IMG/VR virus record: IMGVR_UViG_3300045988_137393
Length of the DNA: 64,000 nt
DNA from: a virus
Reading direction: 5' to 3' (one strand)
Shown here: piece by piece, positions 3,809 to 54,637 of the stretch
Layout: each line of letters starts with the position of its first letter
Numbering within the stretch: the stretch's first letter is position 1
Notes under the pieces: model-generated
Told to the model about the DNA's origin: nothing
The model's input: the letters and a program-made list of their open reading frames with translations, nothing else
Database searches by the model: none
Program-made: the position numbers and the translations under genes

Positions 3809-3896
3809 AGTCGCATTGAGCAGGCTCAGTCTACGCTTTTTTAAGCGGTTGTGAATTAAGCACATTTGAGAAGTGGTTCGATTCCACTTGCGACTT
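3809..3896 (+). ncRNA. tRNA-like element with perfect acceptor stem and T-arm but non-canonical core
   Basis: AGTCGCA/TGCGACT acceptor stem (7/7). T-arm AGTGG-TTCGATT-CCACT. The interior holds three hairpins: TGAG-cagg-CTCA, CGCTT-tttt-AAGCG and TGTG-AATTAAG-CACA. No standard anticodon arm and no CCA. Confidence 0.45.
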
Positions 3897-25668: not shown

Positions 25669-25938
25669 ATGGAAAATTATAAAATTAGTTATAATGGTGA
25701 TACTCAAATAAAAAATATTCACCATATAGGTATTGATTATAATGGAAATTATTATAGTGTGATTTTCGGAGAATATGTAAATGGAGGATTCTTTAGTATT
25801 CCGAATTGGAATTGCGGTGGTGAGTTAGCTGGACTTAGCGATGTGTTTTGGAATACTGAATCTATTCAGAGATCATTAAAAAGTAAAAGAGCTTCTAAAG
25901 CTATTGCAAAAGCGATAGCAGATTATGTAAAGGAGTGA
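25669..25938 (+). CDS. hypothetical protein (89 aa)
   Basis: ATG after GGAAGGTGG. Confidence 0.6.
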   Translation: MENYKISYNGDTQIKNIHHIGIDYNGNYYSVIFGEYVNGGFFSIPNWNCGGELAGLSDVFWNTESIQRSLKSKRASKAIAKAIADYVKE

Positions 25939-25943
25939 TTGGT

Positions 25944-31421: not shown

Positions 31422-33629
31422 GTGCATGAAGTGAAAGACGAAATATTGCGTGAAAAATTAAATAATCTTTCATCACAACAGTTGGAATGGATTAATGAAT
31501 ACTGTGTAAATGATATGTCAAAATTGAAGAAAATTAGTTACAATGCATTTTTCAGGTATGGGATTCCAGCACATGAACATGACGAATTGTACGATGATGC
31601 AATGAATGTTCTGATGGAAAGTGTTATCAACTTTGATTCATCTCAAGGTGCGAGTTTTAAAACTTACCTTATTAATAATATTAAAAAATCTGTTATTGAC
31701 TGGTATAGAGACAACTATCAGAGATGTAAAAGAAAAAATCTATTAACTGATAAAAATGGAAAGATAGTAAAGGTTGATAAAAATGGAAATGTAACAGATG
31801 ACGATAAAGGAAAACCAGTTATTATTCCAGATACTTCATTTGATGCACCTACTGAAGAAGATAATGATTTAGTAGAAAAAATTGCATCTGACTTTAACGT
31901 AGAAGACAAGAGTGAGTTCGATTTTAGTGCCGATGAAAAAGTTGATAATTTTATTGATTCTTTGCCGAGGATACAAAAAAATATTTTGCTGATGCGGATG
32001 GAGAATGTTCCTGCTGATAATATAAAACAAAAATTGAATATATCAGACAGAGAATATAGTAGTGCTATGAAGTCAATTAAGATAAATAAAGGACTTTCAG
32101 TATTTTCAAAGAATAAAAATGATGGGAATTATGATGTGGAGGTAAATAATATGGAAGACAGAATTATTGAAATTAGCGAATCTGAAAATTACAGGACGGA
32201 CAAGTATAGCATGTATTCGTTGTTACAGGATAAGAAAAATGGAGACGTGAACTGCAACTACATCTTGCAACGTGAACCTTTTCAGTGGACTACAGAAGAA
32301 GCGAATAGATATTTTTGTCGTATTCTTAGTAATCTTCCTATTCCAGAAATTATTCTTTGTGAACAGAAGAAAAAGGGATTGACAATCTCTCATTTAATTG
32401 ACGGATTGCAGAGACTTTCATATGCTGAGGCATTCAAGGAAAATCGTATTAAGATTGGTTCAGCAGGAGCAGAGAGACATTTAATTCAGTATAGAGATTA
32501 TGTCTTAGATGATAATGGAAATCGTGTACTTGATGAAGATGGCTTACCAGAATATGAGATGAAAATATTTGATGTTATAGGGAAATATTATAAAGATCTT
32601 CCTGATGAGTTAAAGAAACGATTCAATAATTTCAATATAAACGTAACAAAATTCTTTGATTGTACAGATGAGCAGATTGCAGATCATATTCGTGATTATA
32701 ACAATCATGCGAGTATGAATAAGGAACAGGGTGGTTTTCTTAATGTATCTGCACAGACAGCGGGATATATTAAAAATATTTCACAGAAAAACACATTCTT
32801 TAAAAATTGTGGGAAGTTTACAGATAATAATGTTATTAAGGGAAAGTTGGAACGTGTTGTTGCAGAATCAATAATGTTAATGTTCTTCCGTGATTCATGG
32901 AAAGCAAAACTTGATACAATTTACAAATATGTTGATGAAAATGCAACAGAACAGCAGTTCTTAAAACTTAATTCACATTTTAATAGATTGGAATTAGCAT
33001 TAGGCGATGACAATAAAGACTTGAAGTCATTACTTACTCCAACTACAATGCCAATGTGGATTGCAGTATTTGATAAATTTACTACATATAATATTGAAGA
33101 TTCAAGATTCATTGATTTCTTAAGAGCATATAATACAGAACTTAAAGATAAAGAAGTTGATGGTGTATCTATGGCAGATTTTAAAGACCAACAGACAAAG
33201 AAAAAGGCAACTATTACAGGTAAAATTGATTTACTTATAAAACTGATGAATGAATTTTTACATATTGGTACAAGAGAAGTAAATAACACAGAATTGGAGA
33301 ATAACAATACGAAAGAAAGTGCTGAAGAAAATACGGAAGAAAGTGTTCTTTCCTTTGTTCAAGAAAATGCAAATCCAAATGTGACAGACGAAGATATAAA
33401 CCTTTACACAGACATGGTAGAAGATTGTGTTAAGATTGACGATCCAGTTTATAAAGAGTGTGGAATGGCATTAGTAGCACTCATGGCATATGCTTGTCAA
33501 AATGATAAGGATCAGGATTTTGAAAAATGGATTGAGAATTACAGAAATAAATCTGATTTTAGTTCATCACAGAAAGTTAATTATACATATATGAAACGCA
33601 GCTTTGATAATTTTATAGCAAATGCGTAA
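31422..33629 (+). CDS. sigma-70-family-like N-terminal module fused to a DUF262 (ParB-like) domain (735 aa)
   Basis: Region-2-like DELYDDAMNVLMESVINFDSSQGASFKTYLINNIKKSVIDWYRD. Region-4-like LPRIQKNILLMRMENVPADNIKQKLNISDREYSSAMKSI. Then the DUF262 core LQREPFQWTTEEANRYFCRIL...SHLIDGLQRLSYA. Confidence 0.65.
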   Translation: MHEVKDEILREKLNNLSSQQLEWINEYCVNDMSKLKKISYNAFFRYGIPAHEHDELYDDAMNVLMESVINFDSSQGASFKTYLINNIKKSVIDWYRDNYQRCKRKNLLTDKNGKIVKVDKNGNVTDDDKGKPVIIPDTSFDAPTEEDNDLVEKIASDFNVEDKSEFDFSADEKVDNFIDSLPRIQKNILLMRMENVPADNIKQKLNISDREYSSAMKSIKINKGLSVFSKNKNDGNYDVEVNNMEDRIIEISESENYRTDKYSMYSLLQDKKNGDVNCNYILQREPFQWTTEEANRYFCRILSNLPIPEIILCEQKKKGLTISHLIDGLQRLSYAEAFKENRIKIGSAGAERHLIQYRDYVLDDNGNRVLDEDGLPEYEMKIFDVIGKYYKDLPDELKKRFNNFNINVTKFFDCTDEQIADHIRDYNNHASMNKEQGGFLNVSAQTAGYIKNISQKNTFFKNCGKFTDNNVIKGKLERVVAESIMLMFFRDSWKAKLDTIYKYVDENATEQQFLKLNSHFNRLELALGDDNKDLKSLLTPTTMPMWIAVFDKFTTYNIEDSRFIDFLRAYNTELKDKEVDGVSMADFKDQQTKKKATITGKIDLLIKLMNEFLHIGTREVNNTELENNNTKESAEENTEESVLSFVQENANPNVTDEDINLYTDMVEDCVKIDDPVYKECGMALVALMAYACQNDKDQDFEKWIENYRNKSDFSSSQKVNYTYMKRSFDNFIANA

Positions 33630-34346: not shown

Positions 34347-36947
34347 ATGAATGGATTGAGTAGTAAAGAAGTTCTCAAAAGTAGAGAGCTTCATGGAAGT
34401 AATAAGCTTCCTGAACCAAAGTTGGACAAGTGGTATGACTTCGCAAAGGAGGCATTAAGTGAGAAAATCACAATGATTCTTATTGCAATTGCAGTATTAC
34501 AGTTATTCCTTGGAGTCATGGGATTAATGGATTTATCAGATCCAATTATGATTCTTGTTGTATTAGCAATTGTAACATGTATTGCTGTTAAGACTGGACT
34601 TGGTGTTCAAAAATCAGCAGCAGAGTTGAGAGCCAAAACATCAGTCAGGTATTGTGACGTAATTCGTGATGGCAAAGTTCAAACAATTAATAAGGATGAA
34701 TTGGTAGTTGGTGATATTGTTTGTGTAGGAATGGGACAAGAGATTTTTGCAGATGGATATCTCATTGAAGGTAAGATTTCTGTAAACAATGCAGCTATTA
34801 ATGGAGAAACAAAAGAGTGTAAGAAAACACCAATTGAAGGATACGTTCATAAGAAAACTACTTCAACAGATGCTTATACGAATAAGAATTGCTTATTTGC
34901 TGGCACAACAGTAATGTCAGGCGAAGGAAAAATGATTGTTACTGATGTAGGTGTGAATACAGTAAATGGTGATACACTTGTTAAAATGCAAACACTTGAA
35001 GCACCAAAGACAGCACTTGATATTGCACTTGATAATCTGAGTGACTTCATTTCTAAGTGGGGAACAATCGCAGCCGTTATTACATTTGCGGTACTTACAA
35101 TTTCAGGAATTGTGCAGGTTGGATTTGGAGAATATTTTAGCGGTGGCGTTCTGAATATTATTCAGAAAATTGCACAGAACTTCTCAGTAGCATTAACAAT
35201 TATTGTAGCTGCTGTTCCCGAAGGATTGCCTCTTATTGTAAAACTTGTAACAAAACAGAATGTAAAGACAATGGAGAAATTCAATATTCTTGCTAAGAAT
35301 CCTGGTAAAATTCCAGAGTTAGCATATGTTGATATTATCTGTACTGATAAGACAGGTACTCTTACGACAGGTGTTATGACTCCAAAGAAGATTATTGATG
35401 GCTTTGGTAACGATGTAAATAAGGATTCAGTTCTTTGGAATAATATCAAGGCAAACATTTCTTTAAATAATAGTGCAACATTTGATTCAGAAAACAATAT
35501 TACAGGTGGTAATTCAATTGATAGAGCAGTTCTTAGCCTTGTAAATCCTGAAACATATGCTGACATTCAGAAAAAATATCCAGTTAAGTTAAAGCAGGTA
35601 TTTAATAGTAGTAATAAGTATTCAGCTTTTACGACAAAGGATGGAATTACATACTATAAGGGTGCACCTGAGAAACTGATTGAGCATTGCACAAAAGTAA
35701 TGGACTCAAGTGATAAAATTGTAGACAATAACGACAATGACACATTAAGTAATGCAATTACAGCAATGACAAGTAATGCAATGAGATGTATTGCAGTTAC
35801 AATGGCAGATGGTGATTTAGTAGAGAATGAAATACCGAATGATATGACATTCCTTGGAATTATTGGTGTTGTAGATCCTGTAAGAGATGAAGTACCGAGT
35901 GCAGTAAAAACAGCACATAAGGCTGGTATTCAAGTTATTGAAATTACAGGCGATTGTATTGAGACAGCAGTTGCAGTTGCTACAGAGTGTGGAATTTACA
36001 AAGATGGAGATTTAGCACTTACAAATGATGAATTTGAAGCGATGTCAGATGATGAAGTAAAGAGTATAATTCCTCGATTGAGAGTTATTTCAAGGTGTTC
36101 ACCAAACACAAAACTCAGACTTGTCACATTAGCACAGGAGATTGGAAAATCAGTTGCAATGACAGGTGATGGAGTAAATGATAGTCCTGCTTTAAAGAGA
36201 GCCGATGTTGGTTTTGGTATGCAAGGTGGTTCAGATGTTGCAAAAGAAGCATCAGATATTGTATTAACAGATGATAACTTTGCAAGCGTTGTAAAGGCAG
36301 TAGAACTTGGAAGAACATTTATGCACAATATTATGATGTTCCTTGAATTCCAGTTACCTATCAATATTTCACTTCTGATTCTCAGTGTTATCTATCCAAT
36401 GATTGTAACAGGTGCATTGCTCGCTTCAGTTCAGATTCTGATTGTAAATATCATTATGGATTCCCTTAATTCACTATCATTCGGTGGCGAACCACCAAAA
36501 GATGAGTATATGACAGAGAAACCTATCAAGAAGGGTTCTGGCTTATTCATTAGAGGAGCAAAGAAACGTATTGCAATTAGTACAGTAGCATTTATTGTAC
36601 TCTATGGAATTATTACATTTAGTCCAATTTCAGATATGTTTGCAACTGAAACAGAGGCTATAACAGCGAGATTTGCATTATTATGTTTCATGGCTGTATT
36701 TAATGGATTTAACATTCGTACAGAGCATATTAATTTATTCAATGGTATTGGAAAGAACAAGTTATTTTCAGCCATTGCAATCGGAATTTTTGTAATGACG
36801 ATTGCTCTTTGTAGCTTTGCGGAAAATCTTATTAAGGTCACAGCTTTAGATTTCAAACATTGGGTAGTAGTTGTAATTTTAGCCTTTATGGTTATTCCAA
36901 TTGATCTTATCAGAAAGATTATTGAGAAGAAAAGAGAGAATAAGTAA
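34347..36947 (+). CDS. P-type (P2-like) cation-transporting ATPase, probably Ca2+ (866 aa)
   Basis: N-terminal LSSKEVLKSRELHGSNKLPEPK. Phosphorylation site ICTDKTGTLT. Hinge MTGDGVNDSPALKRADVGFGM. PEGLP in M4. Multiple TM segments. Confidence 0.9.
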   Translation: MNGLSSKEVLKSRELHGSNKLPEPKLDKWYDFAKEALSEKITMILIAIAVLQLFLGVMGLMDLSDPIMILVVLAIVTCIAVKTGLGVQKSAAELRAKTSVRYCDVIRDGKVQTINKDELVVGDIVCVGMGQEIFADGYLIEGKISVNNAAINGETKECKKTPIEGYVHKKTTSTDAYTNKNCLFAGTTVMSGEGKMIVTDVGVNTVNGDTLVKMQTLEAPKTALDIALDNLSDFISKWGTIAAVITFAVLTISGIVQVGFGEYFSGGVLNIIQKIAQNFSVALTIIVAAVPEGLPLIVKLVTKQNVKTMEKFNILAKNPGKIPELAYVDIICTDKTGTLTTGVMTPKKIIDGFGNDVNKDSVLWNNIKANISLNNSATFDSENNITGGNSIDRAVLSLVNPETYADIQKKYPVKLKQVFNSSNKYSAFTTKDGITYYKGAPEKLIEHCTKVMDSSDKIVDNNDNDTLSNAITAMTSNAMRCIAVTMADGDLVENEIPNDMTFLGIIGVVDPVRDEVPSAVKTAHKAGIQVIEITGDCIETAVAVATECGIYKDGDLALTNDEFEAMSDDEVKSIIPRLRVISRCSPNTKLRLVTLAQEIGKSVAMTGDGVNDSPALKRADVGFGMQGGSDVAKEASDIVLTDDNFASVVKAVELGRTFMHNIMMFLEFQLPINISLLILSVIYPMIVTGALLASVQILIVNIIMDSLNSLSFGGEPPKDEYMTEKPIKKGSGLFIRGAKKRIAISTVAFIVLYGIITFSPISDMFATETEAITARFALLCFMAVFNGFNIRTEHINLFNGIGKNKLFSAIAIGIFVMTIALCSFAENLIKVTALDFKHWVVVVILAFMVIPIDLIRKIIEKKRENK

Positions 36948-36963
36948 TTGAGGAGATGAGAGC

Positions 36964-37167
36964 ATGGTAAGGAGAGATAAAAGTTATAAAAAAGTAGAGA
37001 TTATTACTATTATATGCTTTTCAATTAGTGTTATTACAGTATGTATTACACGCTTTATTCCATTTATTTTTCTGACGTTACTCACATTCCCAATTTCTTT
37101 TAAATTATTAAAAGGGAAGGTTGACAGCCTTCCCAAGAATAAGGAGGACAAACAATATGTCAATTAG
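36964..37167 (+). CDS. small membrane protein (67 aa)
   Basis: ATG 8 nt after AGGAG. Two hydrophobic segments. Confidence 0.55.
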   Translation: MVRRDKSYKKVEIITIICFSISVITVCITRFIPFIFLTLLTFPISFKLLKGKVDSLPKNKEDKQYVN

Positions 37168-37735
37168 TTTAGTTAAAGGTCAGAAGATTGACCTTACAAA
37201 AGGTAATGCAGGTTTAAACAAAGTCGTATTTGGTCTTGGATGGGATACAAATAGATACGATGGTAATGCAGATTTCGATTTGGATGTATCAGCATTTTTT
37301 ACTGATGATTCAGGAAAGGTAACAGGCGAACAGGATTTTGTATTTTATGGTCAGCCACAGCATCCAAGCGGAGCATTGATTTATTCTGGCGATAATAGAA
37401 CAGGTGTAGGTGATGGCGATGACGAGACAATGATTGTTGAGTTAAATAAGATTCCATCTAATATTACAAAGATTAGCTTCTCAGCGACAATTTATGATGC
37501 AGAAAATCGTTTACAGAATTTCGGAATGGTTGATAATTCGTACATTAGAGCATACAACGCTGATACAAATGAGGAACTTTTCAAATATGAACTTAATGAG
37601 GATTTCTCATTAGAGACAGGTGTTATTGCAGGTGAGTTGTATCGTAAGAACGGTGAATGGAAGTTTAATGCAGTTGGTTCAGGTTACAATGGTGGTTTAG
37701 CTGCTATTGGTAGAAATTTTGGTCTTGATTTATAA
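37157..37735 (+). CDS. terD: TerD-family (tellurium-resistance/Ca2+-binding) protein, paralog 1 (192 aa)
   Basis: MSISLVKGQKIDLTK..GLGWD..DFDLDVSAF..GDNRTGVGDGDDE..GEWKFNAVGSGY. ATG 8 nt after AAGGAGG. Confidence 0.9.
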   Translation: MSISLVKGQKIDLTKGNAGLNKVVFGLGWDTNRYDGNADFDLDVSAFFTDDSGKVTGEQDFVFYGQPQHPSGALIYSGDNRTGVGDGDDETMIVELNKIPSNITKISFSATIYDAENRLQNFGMVDNSYIRAYNADTNEELFKYELNEDFSLETGVIAGELYRKNGEWKFNAVGSGYNGGLAAIGRNFGLDL

Positions 37736-37753
37736 AATGGAAGGAGAATATAT

Positions 37754-38329
37754 ATGTCAGTAAATTTAGTAAAAGGACAGAAAATTAATTTATCTAAGGA
37801 AGTAGCAGGTGGTCTTACAAAGATTATGGTAGGACTTGGATGGGATGCTGCTAAGAAAGGATTATTTGGTTCTAAGCCAAACATTGATTGCGATGCTTCA
37901 GCAATTATTTTAGGAAAAGATGATAAGTATCGCACATGTGTTTATTATGGTGACAGATCAGCGGAAGACAGATGTGTGTATCATCATGGCGACAACCTCA
38001 CAGGAGATGGAGACGGTGATGATGAGCAGATTACAGTTGATCTTGCGAATATTACAAATAAGGTTGAGAAGATTGTATTTGTAGTAAATATCTATGATTG
38101 TATTTCAAGAAAGCAGGATTTTGGACTTATCAAGAATGCGTACATTAGACTTGTTGATGAGTCAACTGGTAAGGAAATTTGTAAATACAATCTTTCAGAT
38201 GATTATGCTGGCAAGACAGCAATGATATTTGCAGAGGTTTATAAGAAAGACGGAGAGTGGAAATTTAACGCTATCGGTCAGGGAACAAATGATTCAAGTG
38301 TTAGCGAATTAACAAGAAGATACAAATAG
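37754..38329 (+). CDS. terD: TerD-family protein, paralog 2 (191 aa)
   Basis: MSVNLVKGQKINLSK..GLGWD..GDNLTGDGDGDDE..GEWKFNAIGQG. Confidence 0.9.
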   Translation: MSVNLVKGQKINLSKEVAGGLTKIMVGLGWDAAKKGLFGSKPNIDCDASAIILGKDDKYRTCVYYGDRSAEDRCVYHHGDNLTGDGDGDDEQITVDLANITNKVEKIVFVVNIYDCISRKQDFGLIKNAYIRLVDESTGKEICKYNLSDDYAGKTAMIFAEVYKKDGEWKFNAIGQGTNDSSVSELTRRYK

Positions 38330-38341
38330 GAGGATTTAATT

Positions 38342-38923
38342 ATGTCAGTTTCGTTAAGTAAAGGACAGAGAGTAGATTTAACAAAGGGTAGACCGTCATT
38401 AAAAAACATTCTTGTTGGACTTGGATGGGATATTAATCATTATGATGGAGAAGCAGATTTTGACCTCGATGCATCCGTGTTTATGACAAAAGAGAATGGT
38501 AAGGTTGGCAAGGATGAGGATTTCATTTTCTATGGTAATCTTGAACATAGTTCAAAGAGTGTAAAGCATATGGGAGATAACCGTACAGGTGAGGGAGATG
38601 GAGATGATGAGGTTATTAAGATTAAACTTGATAAAATCCCATCAGACTACGAGACTCTTGCTGTGACGGTCACAATTTATGATGCTGAGAGTAGACTTCA
38701 GAACTTCGGTATGGTTGGAAATGCATATGTGCGTGTAGTAGACGAAGAGACAGGCGAGGAACTTATTCGTTTTGATTTAAGTGAAGACTTCTCTACCGAG
38801 ACTGCGTTAGTCGTAGCTGAAATTTATAAACATAATGGTGAATGGAAGTTTAAGGCTGTAGGAAGTGGCTATAACGGTGGATTAAAAGCATTATGTAATC
38901 AGTATAGAATTGATGCAGAGTAG
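38342..38923 (+). CDS. terD: TerD-family protein, paralog 3 (193 aa)
   Basis: MSVSLSKGQRVDLTK..GLGWD..GDNRTGEGDGDDE..GEWKFKAVGSGYNGGLKALC. Very close to the B. subtilis YceD pattern. Confidence 0.9.
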   Translation: MSVSLSKGQRVDLTKGRPSLKNILVGLGWDINHYDGEADFDLDASVFMTKENGKVGKDEDFIFYGNLEHSSKSVKHMGDNRTGEGDGDDEVIKIKLDKIPSDYETLAVTVTIYDAESRLQNFGMVGNAYVRVVDEETGEELIRFDLSEDFSTETALVVAEIYKHNGEWKFKAVGSGYNGGLKALCNQYRIDAE

Positions 38924-38932
38924 GAGGATTGT

Positions 38933-39682
38933 ATGACAAATTTTATGTTTATTATAATTGTGGCGATTGTATTAATTGCACTGATCCTTTTCTTTACTCC
39001 TTTTGGTAAACAGCTTCGAGTAAAATTTAAAGGAAGAACGGATGAAGTGATGCGTCAGGATGCACAGACACCAGAAGGTGCTAGAGATTATTACAATGCA
39101 GCCATTAGAGAAAAGGAAGACTTTTATAACAAGGCATCTGCTACATATGCTGAAATTTCAGGAAAGCGTGATACAGCAGAAAAAGACTTATATCAGGCGA
39201 ATAAAGATATTATGCGTGTTACACAGCAGATTAATGCTTGTCTTGATGAAAATAAAGAAAATGAAGCAATGCAGTATGCAATGAAGAAGTCTACTTTGGA
39301 GAATAAGATTAATGTACTAAAAGATACAATTGAAGAGATGAAAGAAGCACAGGTTCACCAAAAAGACATTCGTGATCAGGTAGCCGAAGAATTGCAGAAA
39401 CTTAAAGAGGAAAAGGAACAGGTTCTTTTTCAGATGGAAGCTGATAGTCAGATTATCGAACTTCATCAGAGTATGGATAGTCTTAATACGAATAATGAGA
39501 GCGATAGAATGCTTGAAAGAGTTCGTGAAGGAGCAAGAAAGACAAGAGAACGTGCAGAAGGAAGTAGAATTGCATATGATTCTAGCGCACAGGCTAATGA
39601 GAGAAGACTTGCTAATTCTGAAAGAGAGCGCAATGCTCGTCAGATCCTTGATGATATGAAGAGACAGAGGGGTAATAAGTAA
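38933..39682 (+). CDS. membrane-anchored coiled-coil protein, PspA/IM30-like (249 aa)
   Basis: N-terminal TM FMFIIIVAIVLIALILFF, then long heptad-rich helices resembling PspA/LiaH. TelA-like is not excluded. Confidence 0.5.
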   Translation: MTNFMFIIIVAIVLIALILFFTPFGKQLRVKFKGRTDEVMRQDAQTPEGARDYYNAAIREKEDFYNKASATYAEISGKRDTAEKDLYQANKDIMRVTQQINACLDENKENEAMQYAMKKSTLENKINVLKDTIEEMKEAQVHQKDIRDQVAEELQKLKEEKEQVLFQMEADSQIIELHQSMDSLNTNNESDRMLERVREGARKTRERAEGSRIAYDSSAQANERRLANSERERNARQILDDMKRQRGNK

Positions 39683-39921: not shown

Positions 39922-40170
39922 TTGAAAGTTGTTGGAAACAAAGAAGATGTTAATCGAATAGAATTGTCACATAAAGGTTTGAATGTCAGTTTTAATTGTT
40001 CTATGAAGCCATTGCCTTATGATTATAATATTGATATATCTAAACCTAAAACAATTGAGATAATATTCAAAGATTCTTACGAAATAGAAGCTTTGATAGA
40101 TGTATTAGAAAAATTTAAAAAAGAGTGTTTTGGGCTTATTGGAGAATGGAGACAATATTATGACGAATAA
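39922..40170 (+). CDS. hypothetical protein (82 aa), TTG start
   Basis: TTG 7 nt after GGAGGTG. Overlaps the Tpt1 start by 11 nt. Confidence 0.6.
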   Translation: MKVVGNKEDVNRIELSHKGLNVSFNCSMKPLPYDYNIDISKPKTIEIIFKDSYEIEALIDVLEKFKKECFGLIGEWRQYYDE

Positions 40171-40702
40171 AGAGCAAAATAATTTAAGCAAATACATAGC
40201 ATTAATTCTTAGACATAGACCTGATGTTGTTGGCATCACATTAGACGAACATGGCTGGGCTAATGTATCAGATTTATTAAAGGGAATCAATAAAACTCAG
40301 ACAATTACAATGAAAATGCTTGAAAAAATTGTAGAAGAAGATTCTAAACAGAGATATTCATTTAATCGAGAGAAGACGCTTATCAGAGCAAATCAAGGTC
40401 ATTCTGTAAAAGTCGATGTAGAATTGAAAGAGTGTATGCCACCAGATATTTTATATCATGGAACAGGTGTTAAATATTGCTCTTCAATCAATAAACAAGG
40501 GTTAATATCCAAGAGTCGTTTATATGTCCATCTATCAAAAGATATTGAAACAGCAACAAATGTTGGCAGTAGACATGGAGAACCGTTTATTTATAAGGTT
40601 AGAGCAAAAGATATGTATAATGACGGATATAAATTCTTTTTATCTCAAAATGATGTATGGCTTACAAAAGAAGTACCAATCTGTTATTTAGAAGGAGAAT
40701 AA
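40160..40702 (+). CDS. kptA: RNA 2'-phosphotransferase, Tpt1/KptA family (180 aa)
   Basis: LSKYIALILRHRPDVVGITLDEHGWANVSDLL..IRANQGHSV..LYHGT..SRLYVHLS reproduces the Tpt1 R-H-R-R motif context. Confidence 0.85.
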   Translation: MTNKEQNNLSKYIALILRHRPDVVGITLDEHGWANVSDLLKGINKTQTITMKMLEKIVEEDSKQRYSFNREKTLIRANQGHSVKVDVELKECMPPDILYHGTGVKYCSSINKQGLISKSRLYVHLSKDIETATNVGSRHGEPFIYKVRAKDMYNDGYKFFLSQNDVWLTKEVPICYLEGE

Positions 40703-40706
40703 TACA

Positions 40707-41255
40707 ATGTCAAATTTATATGTATATTTAATTCGTTCTCGTAACAAGGATAATAAGGATATTCCAAATTTTAAGCAACGAGATAAGACAATTCTTGAAT
40801 ATAAAGAGAATGAAGACGAAATAATTGAAGAATTTAAAAGTTTTGCAACTAAAGGAGTTCCTGGTGAACAGACAAGATTATATAGATCAGTTAATTCTAG
40901 GAACGAAGAGAAAATCAGGGAAGAATTTATTATTCGTCTGCTGAGAGACAAGCCAAGTATGACACAGCTTAATCGTACATTAGCTTCAGTTGCACAGCAA
41001 GTACAAAATCGTGACGAGAGTAAATGGTTGTTTGACTTTGATGTGGACAATGAAGAAAAAGTAGAAGATTTTATTGACGATATTTATTTTTATTCAGAAT
41101 TGGATAATCACGAATTGCATAAGACTCCACATGGCTATGCAATCATTGTTCCGCATAGATTTGATACAAGAGAGTTGATGGAAAAGTGGAAAGATTATGA
41201 TATCACATTGAAGAAAGATGAGTTGTTGTTTTTGGATATGATAACGAATAAGTGA
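40707..41255 (+). CDS. hypothetical protein (182 aa) embedded in the Tpt1-CCA-DHH operon
   Basis: ATG 4 nt after the GGAGAATAA junction. No family recognised by eye. Confidence 0.7.
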   Translation: MSNLYVYLIRSRNKDNKDIPNFKQRDKTILEYKENEDEIIEEFKSFATKGVPGEQTRLYRSVNSRNEEKIREEFIIRLLRDKPSMTQLNRTLASVAQQVQNRDESKWLFDFDVDNEEKVEDFIDDIYFYSELDNHELHKTPHGYAIIVPHRFDTRELMEKWKDYDITLKKDELLFLDMITNK

Positions 41256-41292: not shown

Positions 41293-42702
41293 ATGAAAAG
41301 ATTGAAAATTGAAATTCCATCTGGTGCAAATGAAATTATCCATAGTCTACAAAACAATGGATATGAAGCTTTCTTAGTTGGAGGGTGCGTAAGAGATAGT
41401 ATTCTTGGCAGAATAATTCACGATTATGACATTACAACTTCTGCCACACCAGATGAAATGATGGAAGTATTTAAGGATAAAAGAATTATTGAAACTGGAT
41501 TACAACATGGAACTATTACCATTATAATTGACGGTGAAGGATATGAATGTACCACTTACAGAATTGACGGTAATTACTCAGATAGTCGTAGACCTGATAG
41601 CATAACATTTACACGAAATCTTAAAGAAGATTTAAAGCGTAGAGATTTTACAATCAATGCGATGGCATACAATGATGAAGTTGGACTTGTAGATCCGTTT
41701 AATGGCATGGAAGATATTGAGCATTATAAAATCAGATGTGTTGGTAGAGCAGAGGATAGATTTTCAGAAGATGCTTTAAGGATTTTACGTGCTATTCGGT
41801 TTGCTTCACAACTGGGATTTGTCCTTGAACCTGATACAGATTGGAATATCTCTAAAATGTATAAGAATTTGGAGAATATATCTATTGAAAGGATCAATAG
41901 TGAGTTCTGTAAAATTGCTGCATCGAGTGATTTCTGTGTACAAATGGTCTTATATCACGAAGTATTCTCATTGTTCATTCCTGAAATTAAAGATATGTTT
42001 GGCTTTCAACAGAATAATCCATATCACATGTATGATGTATGGAATCATACCGTACATGCAGTACAAGCATATTCTTGTGATTGTGAAGAAGACTTAAATC
42101 CAATAGATTTAATTACGTCATTAGCGGTGTTCTTTCATGACATAGGAAAGCCACACTGTTATCAAGACGGTGAGGATGGCATTAGACATTTTAAAGGGCA
42201 TGGAAAAGTCAGTGCTGATATGACTGATACAATTATGAAAAGACTTCGTTTTGATAATGATACAAGAGAAAAAGTAGTGCAGCTTGTTTATTATCATGAT
42301 GCAACTTTTGAAGTGGGTGAAAAGTATATCAAGAGATGGCTCAATAAGATTGGAGAAGAACAATTTAGAAGATTACTGAATGTTCGTAGAGCTGATATTA
42401 AAGCGCAGGCTTATACAGAGCAAGAGAGTAGGCTTCAGAAAATTGACAATATCGAATATATCTTAGAGGAAGTTTTACAGAAAGACGAATGTTTCTCACT
42501 GAAAGATTTGGCTGTTAATGGCAATGATTTGATTGAGATTGGATATAAGCCAGGAAAAGAAATAGGGAATACACTGAATTGTCTTTTACAGTTAGTAATT
42601 GAAGGTGTATATCTAAACGAGAAAAGTGAGTTACTTAAATATGTTGAGACAACAAAAGAATGGATGAAGTTAGGAGAGAATTATAATGGTAAGATTATTT
42701 AG
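41293..42702 (+). CDS. cca: CCA-adding enzyme (class II tRNA nucleotidyltransferase with HD domain) (469 aa)
   Basis: GGCVRDSILGR, HDYDITT, EDLKRRDFTINAMAY, and the C-terminal HD motif FFHDIGKPH. Confidence 0.88.
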   Translation: MKRLKIEIPSGANEIIHSLQNNGYEAFLVGGCVRDSILGRIIHDYDITTSATPDEMMEVFKDKRIIETGLQHGTITIIIDGEGYECTTYRIDGNYSDSRRPDSITFTRNLKEDLKRRDFTINAMAYNDEVGLVDPFNGMEDIEHYKIRCVGRAEDRFSEDALRILRAIRFASQLGFVLEPDTDWNISKMYKNLENISIERINSEFCKIAASSDFCVQMVLYHEVFSLFIPEIKDMFGFQQNNPYHMYDVWNHTVHAVQAYSCDCEEDLNPIDLITSLAVFFHDIGKPHCYQDGEDGIRHFKGHGKVSADMTDTIMKRLRFDNDTREKVVQLVYYHDATFEVGEKYIKRWLNKIGEEQFRRLLNVRRADIKAQAYTEQESRLQKIDNIEYILEEVLQKDECFSLKDLAVNGNDLIEIGYKPGKEIGNTLNCLLQLVIEGVYLNEKSELLKYVETTKEWMKLGENYNGKII

Positions 42703-44956: not shown

Positions 44957-45805
44957 TTGTATGCGTTACAGCAGCTCGGAATATTTATAAGAGAATATCA
45001 TACATATGAAATTTTGCCAGAAGCCATAGCAGTTTCTCAGTACCATTTTCCGTTTGTGGTACATCATGGCGATTTATATGAAGCGGATTTTGAACAGTTC
45101 AAAGGATTTGATTTACTGTTGGCAGGAACTTGTTGCCAGTCACTTTCAAGAGTGCGAATTGAAAGCAAAGAGGTTAATAATGGGCTTGATGGTAAGTCAG
45201 GAATTTTCTTTAAAGCAGTTGAGTGTCTCAGGGCAATTCAGCCCAAATATTTCATGTTTGAAAATGTAATACCAAGTAGTGATGAAGACCTGAAGACAAT
45301 GACAGAATGCATTGGTGTAGAACCTATTTTGATTGATTCAGGAAGATTTTCGTCTCAAAATCGTGAAAGATATTATTGGACAAACATACCATTAGGTAAA
45401 TTACCCGATGAATCTCCATTAGTTTTGAAGGATATTATGGAGAATGGTGTAGATGAGAAATATTTTTATAAGAAAGATTTTGAAATCTTGGATATGAGTA
45501 AACGTGTATGTGCAGAGTTGAAAGTTAATACAACTGAGATGTGCAAACGTATTTTTAATCCCGATTTCAAAATGTCTACATTAACTTGCGTGTCAGGTGG
45601 ATATCAGGAAAAGAAGGTATTAGATAGGGGTAGACCACGAAAACTTACAGAAGTTGAATATGAAAGATTACAGGGATTGCCTGATAATTTTACAAAAATT
45701 CAGCTTAACAATCGTTGGTTATCATACTCAAAAAGATGTAGTTTGATGGGCAATGGATGGAATGAACCTACTGTTGAATGGATTTTGAGTGGGTTAAAAG
45801 AATAA
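44957..45805 (+). CDS. dcm: DNA (cytosine-5)-methyltransferase; first canonical start (TTG) lies after motif I, frame open from 44897
   Basis: Motifs TCCQSLS (IV), FMFENV (VI), QNRERYYW (VIII), GNGWN (X). Motif I (LRVLSLCGGVETG) is encoded at 44918-44956, upstream of any ATG/GTG/TTG. Confidence 0.75.
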   Translation: MYALQQLGIFIREYHTYEILPEAIAVSQYHFPFVVHHGDLYEADFEQFKGFDLLLAGTCCQSLSRVRIESKEVNNGLDGKSGIFFKAVECLRAIQPKYFMFENVIPSSDEDLKTMTECIGVEPILIDSGRFSSQNRERYYWTNIPLGKLPDESPLVLKDIMENGVDEKYFYKKDFEILDMSKRVCAELKVNTTEMCKRIFNPDFKMSTLTCVSGGYQEKKVLDRGRPRKLTEVEYERLQGLPDNFTKIQLNNRWLSYSKRCSLMGNGWNEPTVEWILSGLKE

Positions 45806-47176: not shown

Positions 47177-47899
47177 ATGAAATACGTTGGTAGCAAAAAT
47201 AGATTAAGTAAAGATTTAGCACCAATTATTCAATCATATATAACTAATGAGACGGAAGGATATTTAGAGCCTTTTGTCGGAGGTGCTAATATGATTGATA
47301 AAATTAAATGTAATAAAAGGATAGGTACAGACAATCATAAATATTTAATTGCTGTACTTAAAAAGTTATCAGAAGGTTGGATACCGCCAGAAGAAATTAC
47401 AGAAGAAAAATATCAAGATATTAAGAACAATAAAGAAAAATATCCAGATTATTTAGTTGGGTATGTTGGTTTTCAGCTTTCATATGGTGGTAAGTGGTTT
47501 GGTGGATACAGAAGAGATAAGGTTGGAAAACGTAATTATTCCTTAGAGGCATATAAAAATACTATCAAACAAATCCCAAATCTTAAAAATATTCAATTTG
47601 AAGTATTCGACTTCAGAGATATCCCATTAGATAAAATTAAAAATTATGTTATTTATTGTGACATTCCGTATCGTGATACAACAAAGTATTCAACTGGAGG
47701 CTTCCCATATGAAGAATTTTACGAATGGGTTAAGAAGGCAAGTGCAAATAATACTGTTTTAATTAGTGAATATAACATGCCTGATGATTTTAAGTGCATT
47801 TGGCAGAAAGAAACAAAAACACTTTTAGATAGTAATAAAGAAAAAAGTGATAATAAGAATATTAGAATTGAGAAGTTGTTTACATATAACGGAGAATAA
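47177..47899 (+). CDS. dam: DNA N6-adenine methyltransferase, D12/Dam class (240 aa)
   Basis: MKYVGSKNRL...EPFVGGANM (FxGxG) ... YCDIPY (DPPY-type). ATGA overlap with an 18-codon upstream ORF. Confidence 0.8.
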   Translation: MKYVGSKNRLSKDLAPIIQSYITNETEGYLEPFVGGANMIDKIKCNKRIGTDNHKYLIAVLKKLSEGWIPPEEITEEKYQDIKNNKEKYPDYLVGYVGFQLSYGGKWFGGYRRDKVGKRNYSLEAYKNTIKQIPNLKNIQFEVFDFRDIPLDKIKNYVIYCDIPYRDTTKYSTGGFPYEEFYEWVKKASANNTVLISEYNMPDDFKCIWQKETKTLLDSNKEKSDNKNIRIEKLFTYNGE

Positions 47900-48594: not shown

Positions 48595-49137
48595 TTGGCA
48601 TTAAATATTGGATATTTAACATCAGATAAGGAAGATAATGAGTTATACACGCCCTATTACGCAACAGATCACATTATTAAATATCTTCCAAAGGATAAAA
48701 TTATATGGTGTCAATTTGATGAAGACTGGTCTGCTTTCTATAACAGGCTAAAAGAGGAAGGATACAATGTAGTCAGAAGTTCATTAGCTGAAGGTCAGGA
48801 TTTCTTCAATTACGAACCTGAAAAATGGGATATCATAGTTAGCAATCCACCCTTCTCAATCAAAGATAAAGTCTTAGAAAGACTCTATTCATTCAATAAA
48901 CCATTTGCGGTTCTTCTACCGCTTAATTCCCTACAAGGTAAAACAAGATATAAATATTTCAAAGATGGTATTCAGATCCTTAGTTTTGATGCAAGAATTT
49001 GCTATCACAATAAAGAGCATATGGACTCTGTAGTAAAGGGTAGTCCATTTGCAACGGCATATTTCTGTAGAGATTTATTACCAAAGGATCTAATTGTTGA
49101 AAAATTGGTTACATATGAAAGACCATTAGGAGAATAA
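48595..49137 (+). CDS. putative NPPF-motif (N6-adenine/N4-cytosine type) methyltransferase (180 aa), TTG start
   Basis: DIIVSNPPFSIKDK catalytic-type motif. The start is unclear: an in-frame ATG at 48547 with an SD is followed by TAA at 48562. Confidence 0.55.
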   Translation: MALNIGYLTSDKEDNELYTPYYATDHIIKYLPKDKIIWCQFDEDWSAFYNRLKEEGYNVVRSSLAEGQDFFNYEPEKWDIIVSNPPFSIKDKVLERLYSFNKPFAVLLPLNSLQGKTRYKYFKDGIQILSFDARICYHNKEHMDSVVKGSPFATAYFCRDLLPKDLIVEKLVTYERPLGE

Positions 49138-52019: not shown

Positions 52020-53183
52020 ATGGCAGAAAGAGCATTAGCACATGTAGAAAAGATTGAGTGGATCAGACCGATTGAAGGAGCTGATAATATTGAACTTATT
52101 GGAGTTTTAGGGTGGGTTTGTATCGCTAAGAAGGGTGAGTTTAATGTAGGAGATATGGCTGTTTATATTGAAATTGACAGCAAGTGTCCTGAAACAGATG
52201 AGAGGTTTGCATTTTTGGCAAATAAGAAATTCAAAGTTAAAACTATGAAACTTGGCAAGTTCAAGGTAATTAGCCAGGGATTAGCCCTACCATTATCACT
52301 TTTCCCAGAATTACAGGATAGAAATATTGGTGATGATGTTACAGAAGCTTTGAAGATTACATATGCTTCTGAAGAAGATGCTGCAAGAAAGACCAATAAG
52401 GTTGATCCAAATGCTAAATATAAGTTAATGGCAAAGCGTAGACCAAAGTTATTTGCTAACCCAATTGTAAGAAGGATTATGAGATACAGCATTGGTCGTA
52501 AGATTATGTTTTTATTGTTTGGTCGCAAGAAAGATAATCCAAAGAAGTTCCCAGATTGGATTGTCAAAACAGATGAGACGAGAATTGAGAATGCACCATT
52601 TTATCTTCAGAGTACCGAAAAGTGGATTAAGACTGAGAAATGCGATGGTACAAGCTGCACATTTGCAGTTGATAGATTGAAGAAGGACAAGAACAAATTT
52701 GATTTTATTGTATGCAGTAGAAATGTAAGACAGGCTGATAGAGAACAGGCTTGTTATCACGAGTCAAATATTTATTGGGAATTGGCTGACAAATATGACA
52801 TTGAAAAGATTCTTACACAGTTTGCAACAGAGAATAATTATAACAGAGTTGTGTTACAAGGTGAAGGAGTTGGCTTAGTTCATGGCAATCCATATAAATT
52901 TACGGAGAATAAGTTATTTGTATTCAATCTGATTATTGATGGTACAAGACTTGGAACTGTAGAAATGGCTGATTTCTGTAAGAGTCATGGATTAACAAGT
53001 GTGCCAATTATTGATACGGCTTATGAGTTACCTAAGACTATGGAAGAAATGAAACTTGAAGCTGATGGATATAGTGAATTAAATCCAAAGGTTAAGAGAG
53101 AGGGGTTTGTATATCGCAGTATTAATGGTCAGCAGAGTTTTAAAAATGTAAGCCGAGAGTATTTATTAAAACACAACGGATAG
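52020..53183 (+). CDS. ATP-dependent RNA ligase, Rnl5-like (DraRnl/NgrRnl type) (387 aa)
   Basis: N-terminal OB-like module VEKIEWIRPIEGADNIELIGVLGWVCIAKKGEFNVGDMAVYIEIDS. Nucleotidyltransferase motif I EKCDGTS, then LQGEGVG and SFKNVS (motifs IV/V type). Confidence 0.75.
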   Translation: MAERALAHVEKIEWIRPIEGADNIELIGVLGWVCIAKKGEFNVGDMAVYIEIDSKCPETDERFAFLANKKFKVKTMKLGKFKVISQGLALPLSLFPELQDRNIGDDVTEALKITYASEEDAARKTNKVDPNAKYKLMAKRRPKLFANPIVRRIMRYSIGRKIMFLLFGRKKDNPKKFPDWIVKTDETRIENAPFYLQSTEKWIKTEKCDGTSCTFAVDRLKKDKNKFDFIVCSRNVRQADREQACYHESNIYWELADKYDIEKILTQFATENNYNRVVLQGEGVGLVHGNPYKFTENKLFVFNLIIDGTRLGTVEMADFCKSHGLTSVPIIDTAYELPKTMEEMKLEADGYSELNPKVKREGFVYRSINGQQSFKNVSREYLLKHNG

Positions 53184-53192
53184 GAGTTATTT

Positions 53193-54077
53193 ATGAATAA
53201 ACCTACATTGTATATCATGTGCGGTTTGAGTGGTAGTGGCAAGTCAACTATTGCCGCTCAGATTGCCAATGAGAATCCAAATACAATAATCGTATCATCA
53301 GACGCAATTCGTGAAGAATTGACTGGTAATTACGAAGACCAAGAACATAATGAAGAAGTATTTAAAATTTTTCACAATAGAATCCGCAAGAATTTAGAGA
53401 ATAAAAAGAATGTAATTGCAGACGCAACTAACCTGACTATGAAATCTCGTAGAGCAATTATGATGAAAGTAAATTGGTTAAATATCAGAAAAGTGTGTGT
53501 AATTATACCAAAGCCGTTTGAACAGTGTAAAGAAGATAATTTACATAGAGAACACCCTGTACCTGACTTTGTGTTGGATAAGCAGATTAGAAAATTCCAG
53601 ATTCCGTTCTATGAGGAAGGATTCGATGAGATTATCATTCATAATTTATTAAATAATTATGAACCAAATGATATTCCAGATATAAGAGGATTTGACCAGA
53701 AAAACCCACATCACACAATGGATTTATTTGAACACTGTAAATATGCATCGAGATTATTTTGTACAAAATATTCTTATCCTGCAAGATTCAGAATAGGTGC
53801 TTTGTATCATGATTTAGGCAAATTGAGTACACAAACATTTGATGAAAATGGAATAGCTCATTATTATCAGCATCATTGTTATGGTTCATACCAATATATG
53901 ACAGCTATGTATCATGTTGATTCTGATGTTGTTTTAGATACATGTTTCCTTATCAATTATCATATGATGCCTTTTAATTGGGATACTGATAAAGCAAAAC
54001 AGCGTTGGAAAGAAAGGTTTGGAGAATACAAATACAAGATGCTTTTAGATTTTAATGAATGTGATAGAGCGAGGTAG
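53193..54077 (+). CDS. bifunctional polynucleotide 5'-kinase (P-loop) / HD-domain phosphoesterase (Pnk-HD) (294 aa)
   Basis: Walker A CGLSGSGKST plus SSDAIRE (T4 Pnk-like). C-terminal HHTMDLFEH ... YHDLGK HD motifs. Confidence 0.7.
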   Translation: MNKPTLYIMCGLSGSGKSTIAAQIANENPNTIIVSSDAIREELTGNYEDQEHNEEVFKIFHNRIRKNLENKKNVIADATNLTMKSRRAIMMKVNWLNIRKVCVIIPKPFEQCKEDNLHREHPVPDFVLDKQIRKFQIPFYEEGFDEIIIHNLLNNYEPNDIPDIRGFDQKNPHHTMDLFEHCKYASRLFCTKYSYPARFRIGALYHDLGKLSTQTFDENGIAHYYQHHCYGSYQYMTAMYHVDSDVVLDTCFLINYHMMPFNWDTDKAKQRWKERFGEYKYKMLLDFNECDRAR

Positions 54078-54223
54078 TTATATAAGTAGTATTTCAGTTG
54101 GTGATTTAAAATCTATTCTCTAAAGAAGAAGGTCTTAAAGATTGGTGTGCTTATATCAATGGCGTAAAAGCCGATGACGATTTTAGAGAGATTAGGTTGG
54201 TGAATTAAGTTAGGAGAATAAAT

Positions 54224-54637
54224 ATGTATAAACAGATTATTATTGCAAGAAAAGACCTCGTAATGTCGTCAGGAAAGCTTGCGGCTCAAGTCAGTCACGG
54301 CTCTATGGCATTTCTCAGTTGGTTTATTAGAAATAATTCCGATTTAGATGGTCATGTCGATGGCTATATTGACGAAGATATTCTTCACAATTGGATTGAG
54401 GGCGAATTTACAAAATGTGTTCTTCAAGCCAAAAATAAGAATCAGTTGCTAAAAGCTAAGACTATGGCAGAAGAATTAAGAATGGTTGAAGGTAAAGATT
54501 TCTGGCTTATAAAGGATAACTGTCACACTGAATTGGAACCTGAAGAGGATGGTAGGACACTTACTGTAATTGGTTTTAGACCAATGGACAGTGAGATTAT
54601 TGATCAGATTGGAAGAAAATATCATTTGTATATGTAG
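54224..54637 (+). CDS. peptidyl-tRNA hydrolase, PTH2 family (137 aa)
   Basis: IIARKDLVMSSGKLAAQVSHGSMAF ... TVIGFRP is the PTH2 signature. ATG after the GGAGAATAA motif. Confidence 0.75.
   Translation: MYKQIIIARKDLVMSSGKLAAQVSHGSMAFLSWFIRNNSDLDGHVDGYIDEDILHNWIEGEFTKCVLQAKNKNQLLKAKTMAEELRMVEGKDFWLIKDNCHTELEPEEDGRTLTVIGFRPMDSEIIDQIGRKYHLYM

Follow-up and report, generated by a model that had tools for sequence, protein, structure and literature searches.

A ligase gene and a kinase–HD gene form a predicted heal-and-seal RNA repair module in a probable temperate Lachnospiraceae phage

The IMG/VR virus record IMGVR_UViG_3300045988_137393, a 64,000-nt stretch referred to here in its entirety as the window, carries at positions 52020–54637 a gene for an Rnl5-type RNA ligase, a gene for a predicted two-domain end-healing enzyme that we call Pnk-HD (an N-terminal polynucleotide kinase joined to a C-terminal HD phosphoesterase), and a gene for a PTH2-type peptidyl-tRNA hydrolase. 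We conclude, with a probability of roughly 0.7, that the ligase and Pnk-HD form a two-gene heal-and-seal RNA repair module of a temperate Lachnospiraceae phage, with tRNAs as the most likely substrates. The data show directly which domains are present, that their catalytic residues are conserved and that the genes are linked; from this we infer the activities of the enzymes, the chemistry of the ends and tRNA as the target. An earlier note on this DNA had proposed such a pathway with an unusual enzyme architecture, PTH2 as a member and a wider tRNA-maintenance regulon around it; the heal-and-seal module held up in our analysis, and the unusual architecture, the membership of PTH2 and the regulon did not.

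The three open reading frames (ORFs) delimited in the earlier note were all found on the + strand (Table 1), as were the motifs quoted there, with TEKCDGTS, GLSGSGKST, VSSDAIRE and NPHHT...YHDLGK all present in the translations. Pnk-HD occupies 53193–54077 and is 294 amino acids (aa) long. The 9-nt gap reported between the ligase stop and the kinase start is likewise borne out (53184–53192) and contains a GGAG ribosome-binding site. No terminator-like site was found between the two genes, and promoter-like matches at the locus were no more frequent than in shuffled sequence. The G+C fraction is about 0.31 across the window, and the identified genes all lie on the + strand.

Table 1. Features of the RNA repair locus and of the upstream Tpt1 and CCA genes, in window coordinates
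Feature	Coordinates	Strand	Basis
Rnl5-type ATP-dependent RNA ligase	52020..53183	+	387 aa; Pfam, PHROG and PDB profile matches
Pnk-HD, N-terminal half (predicted P-loop 5′-OH polynucleotide kinase)	53193..53642	+	AAA_33, CthPnk 4gp7, Foldseek
Pnk-HD, C-terminal half (linker and predicted HD phosphoesterase, CCA-adding-enzyme type)	53643..54077	+	homologue, profile and model evidence
c53 remnant, broken small gene	54055..54208	+	tblastn with intact c53 of sister phages
PTH2-type peptidyl-tRNA hydrolase	54224..54637	+	137 aa; PF01981
Tpt1/KptA RNA 2′-phosphotransferase	40130..40702	+	PF01885, 5.1e-46
Class II CCA-adding enzyme with its own HD domain	41293..42702	+	PolyA_pol head 7.7e-38, HD 2.3e-6

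The ligase shows the two-domain build that had been read from its motifs, an N-terminal OB-like module followed by a nucleotidyltransferase domain with a KxDG lysine motif. Pfam places the PHA02142 OB-fold (PF21189) at aa 6–92 (E = 5.8e-23) and the RNA_ligase domain (PF09414) at aa 200–375 (E = 2e-19), and motif I reads K207-C-D209-G210. The best solved relative is NgrRnl of Naegleria gruberi (PDB 5cot, E = 1.7e-35), which aligns over both domains, in two stretches covering residues 3–115 and 176–386 of the window ligase. An active-site alignment to NgrRnl had been proposed as a check; in the HMMER alignment all motif residues align, with R188, K207, D209, E282, E361 and K375 corresponding to R149, K170, D172, E227, E312 and K326 of NgrRnl. 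The motif V lysine, K375, lies 12 residues from the C terminus, the alignment reaches the end of NgrRnl, and there is no appended C-terminal domain, an Rnl5-like ending just after motif V. Between the OB and nucleotidyltransferase domains lies a basic linker or insert of about 60 aa (aa 116–175).

The PHROG family phrog_968, 'RNA ligase', matches the protein end to end (4.6e-61), and 331 deposited phage records carry annotations of similar ligases. The DRB0094 model TIGR02306 (RNA_lig_DRB0094) also matches (2.8e-29), at 102.1 bits against an equivalog cut-off of 151.15, so that the window ligase is a relative of the DraRnl model rather than an equivalog. On sequence grounds, we assign it to the Rnl5 type, within the phage phrog_968 clade. 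Characterised Rnl5 ligases seal 3′-OH/5′-PO4 nicks in duplexes in which the 3′-OH strand is RNA; the position of the window ligase gene beside that of a predicted end-healing enzyme implies that this ligase takes part in repairing cyclic-phosphate breaks.

The kinase domain spans aa 1–150 of Pnk-HD and is recognized by Pfam as AAA_33 (2.6e-24). Its best solved sequence match is the Clostridium thermocellum kinase CthPnk (4gp7, E = 4.9e-11), with the SSDxxR motifs aligned and D37 and R40 corresponding to D38 and R41 of CthPnk; Pnkp1 (4xrp) matches with an E value of 2.3e-5. In a Foldseek search with an AlphaFold model of the full-length protein (mean predicted local distance difference test (pLDDT) score 89.6, predicted template modelling (pTM) score 0.87), the top PDB folds were CthPnk, mammalian PNKP and T4 Pnk, all of them matching the kinase only. 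The key residues are the P-loop G11-S15-G16-K17-S18, D37 (the predicted general base), R40, D77, R86 and R119. Conservation was assessed across 124 family representatives that are 28–54% identical to the window protein, and G11, S15, G16, K17, D37, R40, D77, R86 and R119 are each conserved in at least 90% of them. Matches to larger healing enzymes are confined to this domain: T4 Pnkp aligns over the kinase only, about 140 columns, and TIGR04075 over positions 9–153 of 851 only, at 57.7 bits against a cut-off of 750. No match to a HAD (DxDxT) domain was found in the C-terminal half of Pnk-HD.

That half contains an HD domain at aa 165–294. On the window protein alone, PF01966 gives E values of 0.06 and 0.027, under the gathering score, and because this call is sub-threshold the identity of the domain was established through relatives and profiles. 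First, the C-terminal 145 aa match the HD domain of the CCA-adding enzyme encoded by the same phage (BLASTP, 27% identity over 149 aa, E = 7e-13). Second, a profile built from 32 diverse C-terminal domains of the family finds the HD domain of class II CCA- and A-adding enzymes in the PDB (3wfp/3wfr, E = 4e-10), followed by Cas3-HD and PhnZ. Third, 23 of these 32 domains match PF01966 individually, and the homologues from Bacillus phage Thrax5 and Lysinibacillus phage LC76P1 score 31–33 bits on the HD model against a cut-off of 22. A phmmer search of the PDB with the single HD half returned noise only (OS-9, E = 0.056; CCA enzymes, E of about 1). An HD-only structure model (pLDDT 96.7) has leading PDB neighbours in Foldseek that all belong to the HD superfamily, with a best template modelling score (TM-score) of 0.71 to the tRNA nucleotidyltransferase 3wfs and weak E values of 0.01 or worse; the model supports the predicted fold but not a specific subfamily.

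The candidate metal ligands of the HD domain are H181, H206-D207, H227, H257 and D291, with H174, K210 and H223 in addition. Among the 124 representatives, all nine positions are 92–100% conserved, and the six named first 99–100%. By sequence similarity, the HD domain of CCA-adding enzymes is the closest characterized relative of the Pnk-HD C-terminal domain; it strips 2′,3′-cyclic phosphate from tRNA 3′ ends, according to the statement in PMC6961547 that cites Yakunin 2004. The earlier prediction of an N-terminal kinase and a C-terminal HD phosphoesterase is therefore upheld, the first through the CthPnk match and the second through the CCA-enzyme BLASTP match, the profiles and the relatives.

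We weighed a different function for these domains, in which Pnk-HD would not heal RNA ends at all: the substrate of the kinase would be a small molecule or a specific tRNA moiety, in the manner of PSTK or KTI12, and the HD domain would break down a nucleotide signal such as a cyclic or linear oligonucleotide used in host defence. Models for KTI12 (1.1e-12) and PSTK (1.1e-14) do match the kinase, but its best matches in both sequence and fold are polynucleotide kinases, and the D-x-x-R motif that binds a 5′-OH is conserved. HD domains include many hydrolases of nucleotides and second messengers, and PgpH, RelH and YqeK are among the weak fold matches of this one; set against this, adjacency to an RNA ligase persists across relatives from 28 to 100% identity, and the homologous, permuted phage family phrog_6931 (see below) shares its domain order with Runella HD-Pnk, an enzyme with published end-healing activities (PMC6097658). 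We consider a function outside end healing highly improbable.

The pairing of ligase and Pnk-HD recurs throughout the family. We collected 80 IMG/VR loci (L001–L080) anchored on Pnk-HD and clustered their ORFs. The ORF directly upstream of Pnk-HD is an Rnl5 ligase of the same cluster as that of the window (c13) in 26 of the 80 loci, and a 439-aa protein with OB and ligase domains (c2) in 49. The latter also belongs to phrog_968 (1.6e-67), yet it can barely be aligned with c13 (BLASTP E = 0.09), and a free-standing HNH endonuclease of about 240 aa (c4) usually lies just before it. In a single locus (L057), an Rnl1-type ligase and a second PF09414 ligase lie upstream. Cultured phages have the same arrangement with other ligases: in Thrax5, an Rnl1-type ligase gene overlaps that of Pnk-HD by 4 nt, and in LC76P1 an OB-containing ligase is followed by an RlaP nucleotidyltransferase and then Pnk-HD. 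A ligase also lies upstream of Pnk-HD in cellular genomes, namely those of Eubacterium segne BX4 and Konateibacter massiliensis and metagenome-assembled genomes (MAGs) of Lacrimispora and Bacilli, and an RNA ligase lies within 2.5 kb in five of six distant metagenomic members.

This conservation across the 80 loci, cultured phages and cellular genomes makes the ligase and Pnk-HD credible as a heal-and-seal unit, as had been proposed; the pair is a real, conserved module, predicted to heal and seal, whose ligase type varies. Among sister phages, the module keeps its healing enzyme and exchanges the sealing one. Rnl1 is the ligase partner of T4 Pnkp in the repair of tRNA anticodon loops (PMC6097658), and the use of an Rnl1-type ligase as an alternative partner of Pnk-HD is therefore the best pointer to the repair of breaks in RNA, probably tRNA.

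Further ORFs occur within or next to the module in some relatives. In one sister locus (L039), ligase and Pnk-HD are separated by a 247-aa ORF that has no Pfam match and resembles a homing endonuclease, and a 266–267-aa ORF, also with no Pfam match, lies between the Rnl5 ligase and Pnk-HD in the Lacrimispora (L084, 4205–5008) and Konateibacter (L085, 4205–5005) genomes. In 11 sister loci (L006, L026, L032, L038, L040, L042–L044, L046, L053 and L056), though not in the window, Pnk-HD is directly followed by a 192-aa calcineurin-like metallophosphoesterase (c46; PF00149, 1.1e-5), which may be a second 3′-end-healing activity.

The architecture of Pnk-HD had been called unusual, a description that its abundance contradicts. 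At 90% identity, homologues of the full-length protein fall into 1,106 clusters. A search with only the HD half finds 407 clusters (50% identity, E ≤ 1e-10), and the best 150 of these are nearly all 280–340 aa long, with the HD domain at about 160–310 and the same domain order; an N-terminal kinase is present in all 10 distant members sampled. A tblastn search places the family in 89 deposited phages, including 38 of Bacillus and 33 of Campylobacter and also a Lysinibacillus phage, where it is annotated as 'polynucleotide kinase', 'AAA family ATPase', 'HD-domain containing protein' or 'hypothetical protein'. The gp264 protein of Bacillus phage G is a structural twin (TM-score 0.83). Pnk-HD is thus a large and common family, with no characterized member found in the literature and no name in any source for 10 distant family clusters. 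A blastn search of deposited phages with the locus returned nothing; a pattern scan of GTDB derived from the single protein found no relative, and an alignment-based scan did find relatives. The family does not appear restricted to phages: an apparently chromosomal cassette (L093; GCA_965296095.1, contig CBDKHR010000009.1, 1810–4918) comprises a Metallophos protein, an Rnl1-type ligase and Pnk-HD, flanked by DUF711 and fucosidase genes and with a HipA toxin module near.

The second part of the architectural claim, that the domain order is opposite to that of Runella HD-Pnk, is correct: the kinase precedes the HD domain in the window protein, and a phage family with the other order can be identified. 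Within the 343 positions of phrog_6931, the HD half of the window protein matches 61–151 (3.1e-8) and the kinase half 183–337 (4e-26). Because the two halves match in swapped order, Pnk-HD is the domain-permuted counterpart of phrog_6931, which these matches identify as a phage family with HD-then-kinase order, homologous to Pnk-HD in both halves.

In the mechanism we propose, Pnk-HD would heal both ends of a break. The N-terminal kinase would phosphorylate the 5′-OH, and the HD domain would open and remove the 2′,3′-cyclic phosphate to give a 2′-OH/3′-OH end, by analogy with the CCA-enzyme HD domain as it is described in the cited statement of PMC6961547. The Rnl5-type ligase would then adenylylate the 5′-phosphate and seal the break, and PTH2 would act separately, as an accessory that recycles peptidyl-tRNA. 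Most relatives that carry Pnk-HD have no detectable Tpt1, and we therefore expect the HD domain to leave a clean 2′-OH/3′-OH end and not a 2′-phosphate junction. The anticodon loop is a proposed target.

Several observations weigh against this proposal. Because characterized Rnl5 enzymes seal duplex nicks and not breaks in single-stranded loops, an anticodon loop is not an obvious substrate for this ligase; the basic insert at aa 116–175 might adapt it to a loop target, or the target might be a nick in a stem. The pattern of HD ligands (H..HD..H..H..D) is also seen in HD proteins that are not phosphatases, and by E value the top fold matches of the HD-only model are the oxygenases TmpB and PhnZ. 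No ligase gene lies within 4 kb of Pnk-HD in one of the six distant metagenomic members (P0230), and we found no biochemistry on any Pnk-HD member in the literature. In Runella, the neighbouring ligase failed on standard 3′-OH/5′-PO4 substrates (PMC6097658), and the title under which HD-Pnk is listed in the references of that paper, 'DNA/RNA end-healing enzyme', makes a DNA substrate possible.

This last point bears on a rival reading in which the pair acts not on tRNA but on DNA or RNA:DNA hybrids, for example at 5′-OH/3′-phosphate nicks or at nicks that contain ribonucleotides. The same title speaks for it, as do the preference of characterized Rnl5 ligases for nicked duplexes with an RNA 3′-OH strand and the fact that one of the top fold matches of the kinase, mammalian PNKP, acts in DNA repair. 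A DNA ligase gene does lie about 650 bp downstream of Pnk-HD in Thrax5, with a ClpP protease gene between; the adjacent partner, however, is always of an RNA ligase family (PF09414 or PF09511), including the Rnl1 type, and never a DNA ligase. Further, RlaP, which stands between ligase and Pnk-HD in LC76P1, is an RNA-repair nucleotidyltransferase, and the nearest relatives of the HD domain are tRNA CCA-adding enzymes. We regard action on DNA or hybrids as very unlikely and retain RNA, most probably tRNA, as the substrate of the module.

Comparison with sister loci shows that the module is itself composite. From the ligase start through the kinase half, the window and sister loci share 95–99% nucleotide identity, which drops to about 60% over the HD half (window 53600–54050) and rises again at PTH2. 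A recombination breakpoint at the junction of the ligase and Pnk-HD genes was considered and ruled out, as sliding identity puts the breakpoint inside Pnk-HD, near the domain boundary. Across 77 loci, the kinase half is 81–99% identical (median 94%) and the HD half is bimodal, with 30 loci at 91–100% amino acid identity to the window, 47 at 58–70% and none between. The HD class is independent of ligase type in these loci, and all 18 catalytic positions are kept in both HD alleles. The module is a three-way mosaic: the ligase can be swapped, the kinase is constant and the HD half comes as two alleles that recombine. Its surroundings also differ between genomes: IMG/VR contig 3300045988_110423 is about 100% identical to the window only from the ligase to LemA, with different sequence upstream and no Tpt1 in the scan, and different segments of the window match different IMG/VR contigs at about 100%, with none of those retrieved identical throughout.

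With one kinase in common, the two natural HD alleles could have different end specificities. A more ambitious view would make Pnk-HD a widespread third class of phage RNA end-healing enzyme, beside the T4 HAD and metallophosphoesterase types, at the centre of an arms-race cassette in which a constant kinase, two HD alleles and non-orthologous ligases, often beside an HNH homing endonuclease, are reshuffled to suit different ribotoxins of the host or different end chemistries, with one HD allele perhaps leaving a 2′-phosphate that requires Tpt1; we regard this view as speculative and unlikely.

The downstream gene encodes a PTH2 protein, as had been stated. PF01981 matches it over positions 1–115 of 115 (4.6e-21, 75.6 bits against a cut-off of 23), the archaeal Pth2 structures 1wn2 and 1rlk match at about 2–3e-10, and K18 in SGKLAAQVSH and D98 and T102 in IKDNCHTEL align with their GK(L/I)AAQV(S/A)H and D-x-G-x-T motifs. 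In Pth2 of S. solfataricus, the catalytic lysine and aspartate are reportedly K18 and D86. It is a divergent member of the family: compared with archaeal Pth2 it carries about 20 inserted aa, it scores under the NCBIfam equivalog cut-offs (NF003314, 74.5 against 126; TIGR00283, 57 against 82), and it is less than 40% identical to any PTH2 of a deposited phage. Homologues are annotated in XacN1, phiM12, Myrna and others. PTH2 has been described in large phages, with a proposed role in ribosome rescue alongside RNA repair genes (Iyer et al. 2021, PMC7824862), and its carriage by large phages is therefore not new.

Membership of PTH2 in the locus is not supported by its distribution. Of the 80 loci, 14 have PTH2 within 6 kb downstream of Pnk-HD, where the stretch is hypervariable and the place of the gene is not constant; conversely, Pnk-HD lies within 5 kb upstream of PTH2 in 18 of the 70 PTH2 loci with enough upstream sequence. 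The spacer between the two genes in the window is filled by the remnant of a small gene, c53, whose start overlaps the end of Pnk-HD. In sister phages c53 encodes about 70 aa, and it stands intact between Pnk-HD and PTH2 in four loci (L029, L077, L079 and L080); the window copy aligns by tblastn in two frames at 80–83% identity and lacks aa 21–38, the signature of a pseudogene with an internal deletion and a frameshift. PTH2 is a separately acquired accessory gene and not part of the ligase/Pnk-HD module.

The upstream RNA genes that had been placed about 8 kb away are present: Tpt1, which lies 11.3 kb before the ligase, a CCA enzyme that includes an HD domain, and a protein with weak DHH similarity whose gene ends 8.4 kb before the ligase. 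Among 25 close Tpt1 loci, Tpt1, an ORF of 182 aa (orf40707; 40707–41255 in the window) and the CCA enzyme occur together in about 21, and DHH in 12. The 182-aa ORF has no family match, lies between Tpt1 and the CCA gene in 24 of the 25 and may be an unrecognized component of the Tpt1–CCA cluster. No ligases were found near a second group of Tpt1 genes, 62–68% identical and from a separate phage clade.

The claim that ligase, Pnk-HD, PTH2 and the Tpt1–CCA–DHH genes form one coordinated regulon for maintenance of the tRNA pool, with PTH2 as an integral part, starts from their arrangement: the six genes lie in one genome, on one strand and within 14.5 kb, and all six products can act on tRNA. Runella groups Tpt1 with ligase and HD-Pnk (PMC6097658), and Iyer et al. 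class PTH2, CCA enzyme, KptA, kinases and ligases together as phage RNA-repair and ribosome-rescue functions (PMC7824862). The genes nevertheless vary independently, with Tpt1 on 7 of the 80 Pnk-HD contigs in addition to the PTH2, Pnk-HD and DHH counts given above. PTH2 lies near Pnk-HD in four of the seven contigs that carry both Pnk-HD and Tpt1, against the 14 of 80 overall, an enrichment that comes from seven related genomes only. Between the two loci lie 8.4 kb occupied by DNA methylases and unrelated small ORFs, a decayed gene (c53) stands between Pnk-HD and PTH2, and there was no sign of co-regulation, although no search was aimed at shared regulatory motifs or co-expression. Because PTH2 and Tpt1 are variable accessory genes, the term regulon is not supported, and we consider coordination of all six genes quite unlikely; a related theme within the same genome is supported.

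The closest cellular match to the window is a 340-kb contig of E. segne BX4 (L083), which encodes an Rnl5 ligase 98% identical to that of the window, a Pnk-HD at 72% and other window genes. Together with a tyrosine integrase (25935–26963) and a 735-aa protein with sigma-70 region 2 and GmrSD_N domains (31422–33629), the near-identical ligase indicates that the window is probably from a temperate phage of Lachnospiraceae. The tRNAs supported in the window are tRNA-Gln (30267) and tRNA-Met (30498) only; an 88-nt 'tRNA-???' call by ARAGORN at 3809–3896, with a two-base anticodon, is probably spurious, as the Rfam tRNA model scores it sub-threshold. By sequence appearance only, the region upstream of Tpt1 (34347–39682) includes an 866-aa ORF resembling a P-type cation ATPase, a coiled-coil 249-aa ORF and three tandem ORFs resembling TerD paralogues (37121–38923). 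Between the two RNA loci lie a C5-cytosine DNA methylase (44957–45805), a 240-aa ORF with no Pfam hit (47177–47899) and a 180-aa ORF with a weak adenine-methylase match (48595–49137); the genes there may serve anti-restriction functions unrelated to RNA repair.

Phage RNA repair is a classic counter to host tRNA-cutting nucleases, and to our knowledge few designs of end-healing enzyme have been studied biochemically. In the locus described here, the kinase-then-HD design is seen in clear form; it is common in phages of gut Clostridia and in cultured Bacillus and Campylobacter phages. The comparative data name residues and partner ligases and so give testable predictions, and the exchange of the sealing enzyme around a fixed healing enzyme informs the evolution of such counter-defence modules.

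Compared with known systems, the ligase resembles NgrRnl and DraRnl (from Deinococcus radiodurans) in having an N-terminal OB-like domain followed by the nucleotidyltransferase domain and in ending after motif V, and its catalytic residues align with those of NgrRnl. It differs in belonging to the phage family phrog_968, in its basic interdomain insert, which has no counterpart in NgrRnl, and in falling under the equivalog cut-off of the DraRnl model TIGR02306. The HD domain shares with that of class II CCA-adding enzymes the motif series HxxxxxxH / HDxGK / HYxxH / H / D; its fusion partner is a polynucleotide kinase and not a Pol-beta nucleotidyltransferase. PTH2 is, like that of jumbo and other large phages (PMC7824862), of the archaeo-eukaryotic type and encoded by a large phage beside RNA repair genes; other than in its low identity and its insert, it has nothing distinctive.

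Runella slithyformis HD-Pnk, compared here by its description, likewise combines an HD phosphoesterase domain with a P-loop 5′-OH polynucleotide kinase domain. Its gene directly follows a ligase ORF (PMC6097658), as that of Pnk-HD follows an ATP-dependent ligase gene, and a Tpt1 gene is present in the same genome in both cases. The domain order is reversed, with the kinase N-terminal and the HD domain C-terminal in the window protein. Runella clusters Tpt1 with ligase and HD-Pnk (PMC6097658), whereas the window Tpt1 is 11 kb away and missing from most relatives; the window also lacks the methyltransferase–HIT (MTase-HIT) partner, and its ligase is Rnl5-type and swappable among relatives. The end-healing activities of the Runella enzyme are cited in PMC6097658 to Munir and Shuman 2017.

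The bacterial Pnkp of C. thermocellum and the Pnkp1–Rnl–Hen1 system provide the closest solved kinase homologue and similarly couple RNA end healing to a ligase. Their phosphatase, however, is a dinuclear metallophosphoesterase where that of the window is an HD domain; the CthPnkp ligase is fused in the same polypeptide, unlike the separate ligase of the window, and no Hen1 methyltransferase was seen in the window. T4 Pnkp with Rnl1 differs in its 3′-healing domain, a DxDxT acylphosphatase rather than an HD metal-dependent hydrolase, and in its ligase, which is Rnl1 rather than Rnl5-type. It is otherwise similar in plan: a phage-encoded, two-protein heal-and-seal pathway in which the healing enzyme has an N-terminal kinase of matching fold and a C-terminal 3′-end phosphoesterase, and, in some relatives of the window, an Rnl1-type ligase partners Pnk-HD as well.

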